A DNA stretch of 64,000 nucleotides from an uncultured Acidobacteriota bacterium (GTDB lineage: Bacteria; Acidobacteriota; Vicinamibacteria; Vicinamibacterales; UBA2999), in assembly GCA_963814395.1 (NCBI GenBank), contig CAWFCS010000004.1:20862-84861 (forward strand), given 5' to 3'. Shown here piece by piece: positions 7,088-58,267 of the stretch. Positions within the stretch are counted from its first letter, which is position 1; every line of letters starts with the position of its first letter. The notes beneath the pieces were generated by a model. The model was given only the letters and a program-made list of their open reading frames with translations. It was not told where the DNA came from and searched no databases. The translations under genes and the position numbers were made by a program.

Positions 7088-7264
7088 GGGGGACTGGGGG
7101 CTGGAGGCTAGGGGCTGGGGTGGGTCTCAAGAAAGACGAAGGGCCGGAAGCAAATGCTCCCGGCCCTTCGTTGTGAGTGTCGAACCTGGGTGTCACACCG
7201 TCACCGTGGCGTGCCTTGGTCCCCAGTCCCGAGTCCCTAGTCCCGCCGCGCCCTAAGGCGCGGC
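7088..7264. repeat. composite palindromic intergenic element: G-rich heptamer array, conserved hairpin, C-rich heptamer array, small hairpin
   Basis: 7088-7124 reads GGGGACT GGGGGCT GGAGGCT AGGGGCT GGGGTGG. 7136-7171 is a 12-bp perfect stem (ACGAAGGGCCGG/CCGGCCCTTCGT). 7218-7244 is the complement of GGGACTA GGGACTC GGGACTG GGGACC. 7245-7264 is GCCGCGCC-ctaa-GGCGCGGC. The core matches the element at 58116-58267. Confidence 0.8.
7125..7171 (-). terminator. rho-independent terminator downstream of pnp
   Basis: A 12-bp GC-rich perfect stem at 7136-7147 / 7160-7171. On the minus strand it is followed by CTTTCTT (complement of 7125-7135). Confidence 0.6.
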
Positions 7265-16637: not shown

Positions 16638-17114
16638 TCAAAACTCCACTTCGAGACGGGCTCGCTTGATCACGCGCAAGGGCAGGCGTTGCAGCTTGCC
16701 CCCGACCGCTTCAAACAGCACATCGTCGCCATCCACACCGCGCAGGTGCCCCGCAAACGCCGTCTGCCTGGCCACCGGCTCGGCGGTGACGATCTTCGCA
16801 AACCGTCCCGCGAACCGCTCGTAGTCGCCTCGTGACCGGAGCGGCCTGTCGAGCCCCGGCGACGACACTTCCAACGTGTACTCGGCGGGCACGACGTCTT
16901 CGACGTCGAGCACCGCACTCAACTCTTCGCTCACCTTCGCGCAGTGCTCGAGGCTGACGCTGTCCTCGGCGGTGGCCGAGGGGCCAGGCCGATCGAGCAC
17001 CACCCGCAGCACGTTCCGGCCGCTTTCGCGGCCGTAGGTCACGTCGAACAACTCGAGTCCATACACCCCGGCCATGGTCGCCGCGAGCTCCCGAATCCGT
17101 TCAAGTGACGTCAC
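16638..17114 (-). CDS. rimP: ribosome maturation factor RimP
   Basis: 158 aa with LEVSSPGLDRPL and a C-terminal Sm-like region. Its position immediately upstream of nusA is conserved. Confidence 0.9.
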   Translation of the reverse strand: MTSLERIRELAATMAGVYGLELFDVTYGRESGRNVLRVVLDRPGPSATAEDSVSLEHCAKVSEELSAVLDVEDVVPAEYTLEVSSPGLDRPLRSRGDYERFAGRFAKIVTAEPVARQTAFAGHLRGVDGDDVLFEAVGGKLQRLPLRVIKRARLEVEF

Positions 17115-17121
17115 TGACTAC

Positions 17122-17155
17122 CTAGAAACAAAAAAGAGTGGGCTACAGCCCACTC
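17122..17155 (-). terminator. rho-independent terminator between rimO and rimP
   Basis: A 9-bp stem AGAGTGGGC-taca-GCCCACTCT at 17134-17155. On the minus strand it is followed by TTTTTGTTTC (complement of 17124-17133). Confidence 0.75.
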
Positions 17156-17204
17156 TGGATTTCCCAGATCAGCACCGGACCCTTGAGTTTAGCATCCTGC
17201 TGGC

Positions 17205-18687
17205 TTACAGGTCCAGGGGCCTAGCGACCAGATCGTAGCCGCTGGGCCCCGACGATTTCCACGTCGAGGAACTGGCCGGGCCGCAAGACCGCCGGATCGG
17301 CCTCGGTCAGGAAGACCTGCGGGTCGATTTCGGGCGCCTGCCCTGAGAGCCGGCCGGTGAAGACCCACTCGTGTTCCGGGGACGGGCCGTCGACGACCAG
17401 ACGCGCACGGGCGCCGACGCGGGCCTTCTGGCGGGCGGCGACCAGCTTCTTCTGCGGTGGCCATCACCTTGCGCTGGCGGCGCGCCTTCTCCGCGGCGGG
17501 CACGTCGTCGGCCAGGTCGAAGGCCGAGGTGTCTTCCTCGTGGCTGTAGGTGAAGACGCCGACGTGGTCGAAGCCCACCGCCGTGATGAAGGCCAGCAGT
17601 TCCTGCACGTCGGCCTCGGTCTCGCCCGGGAAGCCGACGATGAAGGTGGTGCGCAGCGTGACGTCGGGCATCTTCGCCCGGATGTTGCCGAGCAGCCGCT
17701 CGTACGAGGCGCGCGTGCCCGGACGTTTCATGCGCTTCAGCACCGCGTCGGAGGCGTGCTGCAACGGCAGATCGATGTAGCGCACGACCTTCGTGCTGGC
17801 GGCGATGGCGTCGATGGTGGCGTCGGTGATGGTGGTGGGATAGAGATAGAGCAACCGCACCCATTCGATGCCGTCCACGCCGTCGAGCGCCCGGATCAAA
17901 CGCGGCAGGGCATCGCGCTCCTTGCGGTCGATGCCGTAGAAGGTGGTGTCCTGCGAGACCAGCAGCAGTTCCTTGACGCCTCTGGCGGCGAGCATGTGCG
18001 CCTCGTCGACCACCGACTCGATGGTGCGGCTGCGGTAGTGACCGCGCATCTTGGGGATCACGCAGAACGCGCACTTGTAGTCGCAGCCCTCGGCGATCTT
18101 GACGTAGGCGTAGTGGCCGGGGGTGGCCAGACGGCGTGGCGTGGTGGCGTCGTAGAGATAGGTGGGGAGATCCAGGCCGAAGGCAGGGACGAGGGACTGG
18201 GGACTGGGGACTGGGGCGGACTGTCCCGCTGCGGACGCTGTGGCGTGCTCAGCTGTCCAGGAGCACCATCGCTGCGCTCGGCGCTTTCGGATCGCGCTTG
18301 TAGAAGGTCAGGGGCGAGGCGCCGGCTGGCGCGCGCAGCGGTCGAGCCGGGCTGGATGGCCTCGAGGATGTTGGGCACGTCGCCGGTGCCGAGCAGGGCA
18401 TCGATCTCGGGGATTTCCTGCTGCAGTGTGTCGCGGTAGCGCTCGGCCAGGCAGCCGGTGACCACCAGGCGTCCGCCAGTGGCCTTCTTGCGCTCCGCCA
18501 TCTCGAGAATCGTGTCGATCGACTCCTGCTTGGCGCGGTCGATGAAGGCGCAGGTGTTCACGATCACCACGTCGGCGCCGTCGGCGTCGGTCGTGATCTC
18601 GTGCCCGGCCTGCTCGGCCATGCCCAACATCACCTCGGAATCGACGAGGTTCTTGGGGCAGCCGAGGGAGACGAAGCCGATCTTCAC
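17205..18687 (-). pseudogene. rimO: ribosomal protein S12 methylthiotransferase RimO, four +1 frameshifts, with a heptamer array inside the interdomain linker
   Basis: N-terminal MTTase domain [30 protein letters not shown]. Radical-SAM core [28 protein letters not shown]-like end QKKLVAARQ..LVVDGPSPEHEWVFTGRLSGQAPEIDP..GYDLVARPLDL then stop. Breaks sit near 17241 and 17457, plus two within 18255-18365. Length is 3n+1. Confidence 0.85.
18185..18219. repeat. heptamer array inside the rimO coding sequence
   Basis: Plus strand reads GGGACGA GGGACTG GGGACTG GGGACTG GGGCGGA. The sense (minus) strand is C-rich. In the frame that continues into the radical-SAM core it reads [26 protein letters not shown]. 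It contains no CTAG. Confidence 0.85.
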
Positions 18688-18691
18688 GGCA

Positions 18692-18719
18692 GGGACCAGG
18701 GACTGGGGACCGGGGACCA
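18692..18719. repeat. heptamer array 5 nt upstream of the rimO start codon
   Basis: Plus strand reads GGGACCA GGGACTG GGGACCG GGGACCA. Two GCTAGC palindromes at 18742-18747 and 18756-18761, 8 nt apart, follow it. Confidence 0.8.
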
Positions 18720-18837
18720 GACCCCAAGGACGCGGCGGGAGGCTAGCGGTTGGCTGCTAGCGGCGCAAGACATCCCAATACTGTACACCCCCACGGCCGC
18801 CCGTGCCTGTCGTGCTATACATGGCGCGCTCGTTGCC

Positions 18838-20047
18838 ATGCCGCGTCAAGCTGCCGGGGGGCCAGTGACATCCCGCGACGTCGCCATCGCCGGATGTGGA
18901 CCAGGCGGTCTTGCGGCGGCCCTCTTCCTGCACCGTGCCGGGCACGCCGTCACGCTCTACGAACGCTTCGACCGGCCGCAGCCGGTCGGATCGGGGCTGA
19001 TGATTCAGCCCACCGGCCTGGCGGCGCTCGACGCGCTCGGCCTGGCCGGGTCGCTGCGGCACCTTGCCGCCCCCATTCGTGGCCTGCACGGCGTGTCGAT
19101 GCCCTCGGGACGCCGGGCGCTCACGATGACCTACGCCGCCATCGACCCGGCGATGACCGGCTACGGCGTGCATCGCTCGCTGCTCTTCGACCTGTTGTTC
19201 GACGCCGTGCGGGCCGCCGGCATTGGGATTGAGACGGGGCGGGCCGTCTCCGGCACCGAGCCCACGGCGAACGGCAGGCGTCGCCTGCTCTTTCATGACG
19301 GCGGCACGTCCGCGCCAGTCGATCTCGTCGTCGACGCGATGGGATCGCGCTCGCCGCTCTCCACCCGATCGCGCGACCTCGCCTTTGGCGCGCTCTGGAC
19401 GACGCTCGACCGCGTGGACATCCAGCACGCCCTGCCCGACTGGCTCGACCAGCGCTATCACCGGGCCGATCAGATGGCCGGCATCATGCCGCTTGGCCGC
19501 TCCAGCCCAGGGGGCCGTGATTCGGTCGCGTATTTCTGGAGCCTGCGCCAGCGTGACCTTGCGCGCTGGACGGCCGGAGGGGATCGAGGCGTGGCGCCGC
19601 GACGCGCTGGCTCTGTGGCCCGAATCAGAGCCCCTGCTCGCTCAGGTGCGTGATGCCGGGCAGTTCGTCTTCGCGTCCTACCAGCACCGCACCCTCGCGC
19701 ATCCGGTTGCGGCGGCGCTCGTGCACATCGGCGACGCCTGGCACGCGACGAGTCCCCAACTCGGCCAGGGGGCGAACATGGCCTTGCTCGATGCGTGGGC
19801 GCTCGGCCGGTCGATGGCGGCGGCGTCGGTGGGCGACGCTCTTGCAGCCTATCAGCGGCGCCGGTGGAGGTATGTCGCCCTCTACCAGTTGATGAGCCGC
19901 GTCTTCACACCGGTCTTCCAGTCCGAGAGCCGCACCCTGCCGCTGCTGCGTGATGTCTTGATGGAGCCGCTCGACCGCATACCACTCGTGCGCCGGATCG
20001 CCGCCCGCATCGTGGCGGGCCAGGTGTGGCTGGAGGCAGGACCGTGA
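18838..20047 (+). pseudogene. FAD-dependent monooxygenase (UbiH/salicylate hydroxylase-like), one +1 frameshift near 19576
   Basis: Dinucleotide fold DVAIAGCGPGGLAAALFLHRAGHAVTLYER. After GCC-G-GAGGGG the next frame continues EGIEAWRRDALALWPE..VHIGDAWHATSPQLGQGANMALLDA, the FAD-binding GD..P..GQG motif. The start may instead be the GTG at 18865. Confidence 0.75.
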
Positions 20048-33491: not shown

Positions 33492-33531
33492 GGGACTAGG
33501 GACTAGGGACTGGGGACTAGGGACTAGGGAC
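33492..33531. repeat. heptamer tandem array (5.7 units) between the dehydratase gene and glgP
   Basis: Plus strand reads GGGACTA GGGACTA GGGACTG GGGACTA GGGACTA GGGAC. The TAG stop of the upstream gene (33524-33526) lies in unit 5. The array ends 10 nt before the glgP ATG. Confidence 0.9.
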
Positions 33532-34507
33532 GCGGGCTCGCCGGGCAGGCGCCCACGAGTGTCGCGAATCTGGAGAGGTCGATGTTGCCGCCGGACACGA
33601 TGGCCACGACCTGGCCGGGTCCGGCGCGACCGGACAGCGCAGCGGCCACGGCACAGGCCGCGGCGCCTTCGATGATGACGTGCGCGCGCTCGGCGGTGAG
33701 CTTCATGGCCGCGGCGGCGTCGTCGAGCGTGACCACGAGCGAGCCGGCAATCGCGCCGTGCAGCAGCGGCCACATCGACGGGAGCACCGAACGCCCGCCG
33801 GCGCCGTCGACGAACGACGTGCGCCACGCCTCGAACCGCTGCGGCGATCCGGCGGCCAGCGAGAGCGCCAGCGGCGACGCGGTTTCCGGTTCGGCGGCCA
33901 CGACGCGCACGTCGGGACGCCGGGCGTTCATGACGGCAGCGATGCCGGCCAGCAGGCCACCCCCGCCGATGGCGGCGACGACCGTGGAGACGCCGGGCAG
34001 GTCGTCGAGAATCTCGAGGCCAGCCGTGGCGTTACCGGCGATGAAGGCGTCGTCGTCGAACGGGTGCACGAAGTAGCCGTGCATGCGCTCCGAGGCGCGC
34101 GTTTCCACCGTCTTCCAGCACTCGTCGTAGGTGGCGCGCACGATCGTGGCGCCGAGCCGCTCGATCGCCCGCACCTTCGTCTCGGGCGCCGTGTCCATGA
34201 CCATCACGGAGCAGGGGGCGCCCACGGACCGCGCCGCGAAGGCCACGCCCTGCCCGGCGTTGCCCGCGCTCACCGTCCACACGCCGTCCTGCAGGTCGCG
34301 CGGACCGAGCTGGCGCACGGCATTGAAGGCCCCGCGCAGCTTGAACGATCCGATGGGCTGCAGGCACTCGAGCTTGAGGAAGACCTCGACCGGCTCGCCT
34401 TCAGGGGTCCGCACCGGCACGTCGAGCCGCACGAGCGGGGTGCGCACGGCCGCCGCATAGATGGCCGCGGCTGCGTCTTCTACCGCGCTGATGGGAATGT
34501 GCCGCAT
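33524..34507 (-). CDS. PLP-dependent threonine/serine dehydratase family enzyme
   Basis: LKLECLQPIGSFKLRGAFN holds the PLP-lysine motif. SAGNAGQGVAFAA and GGGGLLAGIA form the glycine-rich phosphate loop. Start taken at MRHIPISAV. Confidence 0.8.
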   Translation of the reverse strand: MRHIPISAVEDAAAAIYAAAVRTPLVRLDVPVRTPEGEPVEVFLKLECLQPIGSFKLRGAFNAVRQLGPRDLQDGVWTVSAGNAGQGVAFAARSVGAPCSVMVMDTAPETKVRAIERLGATIVRATYDECWKTVETRASERMHGYFVHPFDDDAFIAGNATAGLEILDDLPGVSTVVAAIGGGGLLAGIAAVMNARRPDVRVVAAEPETASPLALSLAAGSPQRFEAWRTSFVDGAGGRSVLPSMWPLLHGAIAGSLVVTLDDAAAAMKLTAERAHVIIEGAAACAVAAALSGRAGPGQVVAIVSGGNIDLSRFATLVGACPASPRP

Positions 34508-50863: not shown

Positions 50864-51964
<1,101 letters not shown>

Positions 51965-58115: not shown

Positions 58116-58267
58116 GGGACTGGGGGCTGGGGGCGAGGGCCTGCCAGAAACGGCGAAGGGCCGGGCGATTCGCCCGGCCCTTCGCTTTGTACGGTGTGGC
58201 GGCTGGACTGGTACGTTACTAGCCCCAGCCCCCAGCCCCCAGCCCCCAGTCCCTAGAACCTAGAACC
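58116..58267. repeat. composite palindromic intergenic element: 19-bp perfect inverted heptamer arrays flanking a 15-bp hairpin
   Basis: GGGACTGGGGGCTGGGGGC at 58116-58134 is the exact reverse complement of 58235-58253. The central hairpin is at 58153-58185. The right array extends at 7-nt period through AGTCCCT AGAACCT AGAACCT (to 58267) and contains the receptor gene's TAG stop. Confidence 0.85.
58153..58190. terminator. bidirectional rho-independent terminator between convergent rng and the TonB-dependent receptor gene
   Basis: Perfect 15-bp stem GCGAAGGGCCGGGCG-att-CGCCCGGCCCTTCGC. It is followed by TTTGT on the plus strand and by CGTTTCT on the minus strand. Confidence 0.7.

Follow-up and report, generated by a model that had tools for sequence, protein, structure and literature searches.

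The window analysed here is a stretch of 64,000 nucleotides from contig CAWFCS010000004.1 of an uncultured Acidobacteriota bacterium of the order Vicinamibacterales, and it carries on its minus strand a rimO gene, encoding the ribosomal protein S12 methylthiotransferase, whose coding sequence contains a short array of G-rich heptamers. We regard it as highly likely that this array is a translated copy of a G-rich heptamer family found throughout the genome, fixed in a disordered linker of the enzyme and inherited as ordinary coding sequence, and that it is no switch. The gene, the linker and the array lie as follows.

17205-18687, minus strand: rimO, ribosomal protein S12 methylthiotransferase with UPF0004, Radical_SAM and TRAM_2 domains, carrying four +1-type frameshifts in the assembly
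18116-18339, minus strand: interdomain linker, approximately residues 117-191, hypervariable in length among relatives and predicted to be disordered
18186-18220, G-rich strand plus: heptamer array in the linker, five units, the G-rich strand being the template (non-coding) strand of rimO

The gene extends from a GTG start codon at 18687 to a TAA stop at 17205-17207 and belongs to a rimO-rimP-nusA-infB cluster, in DNA of ~70% G+C. Its reading frame is not intact in this assembly owing to the four +1-type shifts; the frame-corrected protein has 493 aa and three Pfam matches, all scoring over the cut-offs, namely UPF0004 (PF00919, residues 2-100), Radical_SAM (PF04055, residues 197-368) and TRAM_2 (PF18693, residues 424-489), with the CxxxCxxC radical-SAM motif present as CDYKCAFC. 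The RimO of T. maritima (4JC0) matches it with E = 1.8e-100, its domains mapping to residues 1-116 and 192-486. The combination of UPF0004, radical-SAM core and C-terminal TRAM is that of RimO, and by its sequence the product is predicted to be an S12 methylthiotransferase of the methylthiotransferase (MTTase) family. All of its best homologues come from Vicinamibacterales (Acidobacteriota), with identities of up to 92% and lengths of 451-527 aa.

On the plus strand, positions 18186-18220 read GGGACGA GGGACTG GGGACTG GGGACTG GGGCGGA, the same five heptamers that an earlier sequence-only reading of this DNA had pointed out inside rimO, and the perfect part, at 18193-18216, amounts to 3.4 copies of GGGACTG according to Tandem Repeats Finder. 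The coding strand accordingly consists of CCGCC, CCAGTCC three times, CTCGTCC and CTGCC. The array has the UPF0004 domain on one side and the CDYKCAFC motif of the radical-SAM core on the other, and the frame in which it would be translated is the one that runs on into the radical-SAM core; the block that it encodes, residues 157-169 of the frame-corrected RimO, is Pro/Ser-rich. Both this placement, between the MTTase domain and the radical-SAM motif, and the peptide itself agree with what had been read from the letters before. With its five G-tracts on the template strand the array also fits the canonical G-quadruplex (G4) motif, as a sequence motif only.

The linker is the sole hypervariable part of RimO. 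It measures 75 aa in the window protein versus 21 aa in T. maritima 4JC0, and in relatives FY-x-RD and FG-x-DLP are separated by anything from 9 to 66 aa. No linker array is present in the shortest close relatives, of 470 aa, and the window RimO is 23 aa longer than they are, close to the excess of ~25 aa that had been estimated for this linker beforehand, which supports the array being an insertion relative to the shortest close orthologues. In an AlphaFold2 model of the orthologue P0006 (34 aligned sequences; loci of relatives are numbered L and proteins P throughout) the domains are confident, and residues 116-169, a span that includes the array-coded block, have a predicted local distance difference test score (pLDDT) of ~30, that is, under 50, and no secondary structure. 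The model supports the view of the linker as a tolerated, disordered segment, and because this segment is predicted to have no fold, the enzyme would tolerate the array. The earlier proposal of an insertion into a tolerated linker is thus borne out on two sides, by the predicted disorder and by the 470-aa relatives that do without the array.

The comparison with orthologues gives the array its age. The coding strands of two of them read as follows.

L083 (protein P0006), coding strand of the array: CCGCC, CCAGTCC x3, CTAGTCC, CCGTC
L081, coding strand of the array: CCGCC, CCAGCCC, CCAGTCC, CCAGCCC, CCAGCCC, CTGTC

The DNA of the window, L083 and L081 aligns without a gap across the whole array, which occupies the same site in all three. 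Its length is identical in the window, L083, L081, L002, L087, L085 and L086 (at least seven genomes) despite a DNA divergence of ~11%, and the orthologous arrays differ from one another by point substitutions only. At the protein level, a block that is always 11 aa long (xPxPSPQxxxP) stands just before VFG-x-DLP in 24 of 120 protein-cluster representatives. Independent assemblies, which differ in project and in sequencing technology, moreover show the same array at the same site, within intact open reading frames (ORFs) of 486-510 aa. Because the array is common to orthologues that are ~11% diverged in DNA, it appears to be old relative to the lineages compared. Over longer distances the unit content does vary, from 0 in L001 and L003 to ~5 in most relatives, ~8 in L088 and 4+5 in the two arrays of L089, and all rimO loci with a readable linker are in frame; the long-range gain and loss of units points to a slow turnover that keeps the frame, the behaviour one expects of repeat DNA when the linker around it is permissive. 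Metagenome contigs were also scanned for unit-number variants of the locus, with two hits, both in frame, a number too small for a population test.

The same comparison clarifies what selection may act on. The coding array of the window contains no CTAG unit, and intergenic arrays of the family often do (that at 33492-33540 is mostly GGGACTA), a difference from which the sequence-only reading had proposed that a CTAG-free variant is selected in rimO. This holds in so far as TAG is excluded in frame, but not for the variant itself, since L083, L088 and L089 retain CTAG units in their orthologous coding arrays, with the TAG out of frame (CTA-G, C-CTA-GC etc.). The CCGCTAG flavour is even translated in frame, as (RD)PLAASRQPLAA, in the RimO linker of L087 (P0025) and in P0009, P0013, P0053, P0066 and P0073, and in this CCGCTAG array the single unit whose TAG would be in frame reads CAG. 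To judge from these sequences, selection removes in-frame stops and not the CTAG variant as such.

A simple history can be proposed from these data. The array would probably have arisen by replication slippage or by insertion, through the process that seeds arrays elsewhere in the genome; only those versions with a total length that keeps the frame and with no in-frame TAG have survived, as the orthologue comparison shows. Since its fixation it would have been inherited as normal coding sequence and have changed by point substitution, the C-rich strand being transcribed as mRNA and presumably translated in frame as a Pro/Ser-rich spacer.

The family to which the array belongs is far more abundant in the window than chance would produce. 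Two-unit matches with at most two mismatches occur 17 times, against 0.79 expected, and 0 of 100 shuffles reach 17; arrays of at least four GGG-phased units number 7-8, against 0.02 in Markov simulations. The 64 kb hold eight arrays of the family, the copy in the rimO linker and seven intergenic ones, whose contexts were fixed by Pfam annotation of the flanking ORFs. The intergenic arrays, together with a related repeat adjoining one of them, are these.

7089-7120, plus strand: array 14 nt upstream of the cupredoxin ATG (7075, minus-strand gene), G-rich strand non-coding, left arm of an inverted pair
7217-7244, minus strand: array 24 nt downstream of the PNPase stop (7268), G-rich strand coding, right arm of the inverted pair
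18692-18719, plus strand: rimO leader array, GGGACCA GGGACTG GGGACCG GGGACCA, ending 4 nt before the GTG and C-rich in the mRNA sense
18742-18764, plus strand: CTAGC-type repeat, GCTAGCGGTTGGCTGCTAGCGGC, adjoining the leader array and of the type translated as PLAASRQPLAA in the RimO linker of relatives
33492-33540, plus strand: array of seven units, mostly the CTAG variant GGGACTA, filling the 42-nt spacer between the genes for a pyridoxal phosphate (PLP)-dependent enzyme and a phosphorylase-like protein
51909-51936, minus strand: array GGGATCG GGGCCCG GGGCCCA GGGACCA between the mreB stop and the mreC ATG (51967), G-rich strand non-coding
58116-58143, plus strand: array 36 nt downstream of the RNase E/G stop (58080), G-rich strand coding, left arm of an inverted pair
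58219-58253, minus strand: array 7 nt downstream of the stop codon at 58260 (minus-strand gene for an outer-membrane beta-barrel protein), G-rich strand coding, right arm of the inverted pair

All seven intergenic arrays obey one rule: those upstream of a gene keep within 50 bp of its start codon and their G-rich strand is the non-coding one, whereas those downstream keep within 50 bp of the stop codon and their G-rich strand is the coding one. In the two inverted pairs, 7089-7244 (PNPase/cupredoxin) and 58116-58253 (RNase E/G/outer-membrane protein), a G-rich arm is followed by a GC-rich terminator-like hairpin (GAAGGGCCGG...CCGGCCCTTC) and a C-rich arm, a layout known from Xanthomonas as well (Rehm et al., PMC4692102). 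CTAG units provide stop codons in all three frames of both strands, and the first CTAG of the 33492-33540 array supplies the TAG stop (33524-33526) of the PLP-enzyme gene. Several unit flavours coexist in this one genome (GGGACTG, GGGACCA, GGGGCTG/C and CCGCTAG). The window has nine G4 motifs, seven of which come from the arrays, against 2.0 +/- 1.4 expected; G4 formation as the unifying property of the family is nevertheless weakened by related species that use units without G-tracts.

G-rich heptamer repeats with the unit GGGAATC in Xanthomonas and GGGGA(C/T)T in Nostoc have been described by Rehm et al. 2015 (PMC4692102); they are dispersed with a preference for ~4 units, form inverted pairs around hairpins, follow a strand and distance rule and are intragenic in a minority of copies. 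The same authors found that the repeats form G4s in vitro, could assign them no regulatory role and judged phase variation unlikely (PMC4692102). The window family resembles this class in almost every respect: its unit GGGACTG is a rotation of the Nostoc GGGGACT; it forms short dispersed tandem runs of ~4-7 units and inverted pairs around hairpins; upstream copies lie at most 50 bp from a start with the G-rich strand non-coding and downstream copies at most 50 bp from a stop with the G-rich strand coding; intragenic copies are a minority, mostly with the G-rich strand non-coding; the G4 motif is fitted, and there is no tie to surface or virulence genes. We take the Nostoc unit GGGGACT to be the cyanobacterial STRR1 heptamer CCCCAGT (Mazel et al. 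1990). Tandem GGGNNNN units in runs of at least two, dispersal far above chance and the shared rule of strand and position place the window arrays, on their sequence characters, in the class of Rehm et al. Differences exist as well. The host belongs to another phylum (Acidobacteriota, Vicinamibacterales, ~70% G+C), several flavours occur per genome and related species use quite different units, some of them AT-rich; furthermore, the rimO copy is read in frame inside a conserved housekeeping enzyme at a site occupied order-wide, a situation not described in PMC4692102. A literature search for heptanucleotide repeats in Acidobacteria found no paper.

Two other kinds of repeat invite comparison. 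The TAACTGA heptamer direct repeats of Beggiatoaceae, Cyanobacteria and Bacteroidetes (MacGregor 2015, PMC4679880) likewise form arrays mostly a few nt upstream of start codons where Shine-Dalgarno sites are rare, have occasional 'reverse' copies translated at the periphery of proteins, and in one orientation stop all three frames, like the CTAG variant in the window. Their unit, however, is AT-rich and has no G4 potential, and their copies within ORFs fall mostly in hypothetical proteins or at protein termini, whereas here it is the interdomain linker of a conserved enzyme. As for the Rickettsia palindromic elements (RPEs), Ogata et al. reportedly observed in 2000 that they are inserted in frame in protein-coding genes. 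Their occurrence in such genes has been reviewed since (PMC1779305, PMC10969869). They are alike in being a dispersed repeat of non-coding type fixed in frame in housekeeping genes, at permissive surface-exposed sites and with function kept; they differ in being palindromes of ~100-150 bp resembling MITEs (miniature transposable elements with inverted repeats), not tandem heptamers. The window copy has no palindrome, although some relatives have inverted arrays, and an RPE-like element was rejected for it, as its 35 nt form a direct array that lacks a partner arm, and its predicted fold is unremarkable (z = -0.64).

To place the linker copy in a wider frame, 80 species-level rimO loci of the order Vicinamibacterales (L001-L080) were surveyed with a strict criterion for heptamer arrays. 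The density of arrays was 0.79 per kb in the linker (19 of 80 species) and 1.03 per kb over the 150 nt leading up to the start codon, versus 0.018 per kb in the remaining ~500 kb of the same loci, so that leader and linker are 43-57 times denser in arrays than the rest; with a looser threshold, arrays appeared in ~35 of 84 linkers. The hot spot in the linker spans ~+300 to +650 nt from the rimO start codon. The units change from species to species (CCCCAGT, GGGATCC, CCCCGAT, CCCCAAT, GGGAACC, GAATTCT, CTGAAAT and others), and the arrays of a given genome are alike, with a mean unit distance of 1.1 within genomes versus 2.85 between genomes. In many linkers a G-rich array follows GTGEVPxIVxAIGG and a C-rich array precedes LPTYIYD, with a conserved PLTFY(RRD) / PLLRSNGEP core between them; such G-rich and C-rich arrays are present, for example, in L086, L068, L027 and L004, and in L086 they are predicted to pair.

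The leader shows a comparable behaviour. In the window, and likewise in every close relative (L001-L006, L081-L089), 2-4 nt separate the end of the leader array from the rimO start, the flavour of the array differing even between close relatives (TGGTCCC, GAGCCCC, AGCCGCT), and no Shine-Dalgarno sequence stands between the window leader array and the start codon. Farther upstream, ~75-95 nt from the rimO start, a 21-nt motif, GGTGTACAGTGGTGGGATGT(C), at window positions 18769-18789 (in the minus-strand sense GGTGTACAGTATTGGGATGTC) is kept in all close relatives examined, and arrays take the place of the intervening sequence down to the start codon. The motif may be a candidate promoter or start-of-leader element; a promoter and terminator scan of 18600-18900, including the sigma-70 consensus, found nothing. 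In one Vicinamibacterales metagenome-assembled genome an array of ~15 units (GGCTTAC / GGCTCAC) lies at L062 2821-2927, ~75-180 nt upstream of rimO, well beyond the 4-7 units that are usual, a length that would make it prone to slippage.

This concentration of arrays at rimO is among the points in favour of another possibility, that the element is retained for what it does as nucleic acid, as a template-strand G4, as the binding site of a factor that recognises heptamer arrays or, where an inverted array is there to pair with, as an mRNA hairpin; it would then modulate the transcription or translation of rimO-rimP-nusA-infB, the peptide being a by-product. The five G-tracts of the linker array fit the G4 motif and the repeat class forms G4s in vitro (Rehm 2015, PMC4692102); in the window, as in all its close relatives, another array stands directly against the rimO start; across the order, arrays are 43-57 times more frequent per kb at the leader and two linker sites than in the rest of the loci, and G-rich and C-rich arrays flank a conserved core in L086, L068, L027 and L004, with pairing predicted. 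On the other hand, the RNA structure of the window linker is like that of shuffled sequence (z = -0.64) and its partner array is missing, the units of many species cannot form G4s, being AT-rich or G-poor (GAATTCT, CTGAAAT, GCAAAAT, GGCTTAC), close relatives with a 470-aa RimO have no linker array at all, no Rfam match was obtained in 17000-19000, and Rehm et al. found no regulatory role (PMC4692102). Taken together, we consider such an element unlikely.

As regards the hot spot itself, tolerance of the linker together with a high genomic supply of arrays is the simplest account of it. Going beyond tolerance, one could imagine an active process that forms or homogenises arrays at the three rimO sites, or a trans-acting factor that reads the heptamer of each genome to regulate rimO; we give this only an outside chance. 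If true, the factor would possibly also regulate the rimP-nusA-infB translation operon, and the peptide insert would be a side effect.

Some points do weigh against our view of the array as plain inherited coding sequence. The density of arrays in the linker is as high as in the favoured intergenic position, which is more than simple tolerance obviously predicts, and some mutational or selective pull on the RimO linker site may exist. The constancy of the array is one of assembled sequences, and unit numbers could still vary within a population. The translation of the array into a Pro/Ser-rich peptide is deduced from the conservation of the frame. Finally, the species of the window is itself absent from the databases, its nearest relative being 92% identical in protein.

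The frame of rimO, as assembled, is interrupted at the following positions.

18325-18327 (~18326), minus strand: first single-base insertion, GCGCCAGCCGGCGCC versus GCGCCA-TCGGCGCC in both orthologues
18252-18275 (within), minus strand: second frameshift, net +1, the window being 2 nt shorter than L081 here
18249-18251, minus strand: in-frame TGA met by the frame entering from the N-terminal side, 29 nt 5' of the array
17457-17459 (~17458), minus strand: third single-base insertion, ATGGCCACCGCAG versus ATGGCCA-CGCAG
17240-17242 (~17241), minus strand: fourth single-base insertion, CCCAGCGGCTACG versus CACAG-GGCTACG

The four frameshifts share one direction and none of them is inside the array. 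Over the whole gene, the differences between the window rimO and its two orthologues fall on codon positions 1/2/3 in numbers of 28/11/107 and 24/13/108, a pattern resembling that of the intact neighbours asnS and rimP; because the differences are overwhelmingly third-position, rimO appears to be under purifying selection across all four breaks. Comparable shifts affect other genes of the window: the flavin adenine dinucleotide (FAD) monooxygenase gene has a +1 shift at ~19577 relative to its orthologues, nusA has a -2 indel at ~15452 that yields an ORF of 502 aa instead of ~408 aa, and at the 3' end of mreB (~51860-51905) the Pfam match stops early, with a plausible C-terminus in another frame. 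Since purifying selection spans the rimO shifts and similar ones occur in these other genes, the four insertions, which had already been suspected as artefacts and are now located, look like assembly errors outside the array. The indels suggest systematic long-read errors. In the rimO-rimP spacer there is also a homopolymer +1 at ~17162. Most of the insertions occur in GC-rich CCGG- or GCGC-like contexts, and in L091, another long-read contig, rimO is broken at almost the same GCGCGC spot.

The sequence-only reading had also seen in the array the architecture of a slipped-strand contingency locus. At such a locus each 7-nt unit gained or lost would throw rimO out of frame or back into it, and S12 methylthiolation would thereby be switched reversibly on and off. 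The unit length is indeed not a multiple of three, the tract lies in the coding region, and over longer evolutionary distances unit content changes (0 to ~8, 4+5). A true heptamer switch of this kind, the ATCTTTC tract of H. influenzae hmw1A, is, like the rimO array, a tandem repeat with a 7-nt step, which does not add or remove whole codons, but it has 11-24 perfect units (PMC8262952), varies among sibling isolates and controls surface adhesins; the rimO array has three perfect units, a constant length in at least seven genomes and in 24 protein clusters, and sits in a housekeeping enzyme, not in a surface, restriction-modification or host-interaction gene. All readable rimO linkers are in frame, no out-of-frame allele could be traced to the array, and Rehm et al. 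judged phase variation unlikely for the whole repeat class (PMC4692102). Moreover, because the TGA at 18249-18251 precedes the array, a change in unit number can neither cause nor repair the frame break in the window. The claim does not stand up to this evidence, and we now hold a contingency locus to be very improbable.

Truncated RimO gene calls, of 322, 298, 223, 384, 205 and 188 aa in the 90% clusters, might have been taken for OFF alleles, and this idea was rejected. Two of them (L090 and L091) could be traced and the others are on short contigs. In L090, a short-read metagenome scaffold, a gap of 100 N at 2385-2484 falls exactly over the linker and gives rise to a called 322-aa 'RimO' starting with VDLPTYLY; L091 comes from an error-prone long-read contig in which the shift is upstream and the array is in frame. 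An N-gap as in L090 is probably also behind several cluster members of 322 and 298 aa. Array-rich linkers thus break assemblies and create false truncated proteins in databases. An internal start after the array was also considered, as the truncated calls start at the GTG of VDLP, and was discarded because the window has CTG (Leu) there.

A mis-assembled array, or a decaying rimO invaded by the repeat, is slightly less credible still: the assembly is error-prone (rimO has four frameshifts, and the FAD monooxygenase gene, nusA and mreB are affected too), and short-read scaffolds can break at the linker (the 100-N gap of L090), yet independent assemblies have the same array at the same site within intact ORFs of 486-510 aa, and the rimO substitutions are overwhelmingly third-position, so the gene appears to be under selection.

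Our interpretation of the array as a translated member of a genome-wide heptamer family has several consequences. It removes a false lead, that of a phase-variable housekeeping gene, and flags the frameshifts of the window as assembly errors; the array becomes an ordinary example of repeat DNA of non-coding type fixed in a permissive protein loop. It also extends the G4-prone heptamer class known from Xanthomonas and Nostoc, to which no function has been assigned, to the abundant soil Acidobacteriota, and because the same rules of strand and position hold there, a common cause can be argued for. New, and of modest interest as a side result, are two order-wide hot spots of arrays with species-specific units, one in the RimO linker and one in the leader at the rimO start codon. 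They offer a natural comparative series, dozens of species with different units that are sometimes arranged in inverted pairs, which could be used to study how such arrays originate, how they turn over and how translation constrains them.

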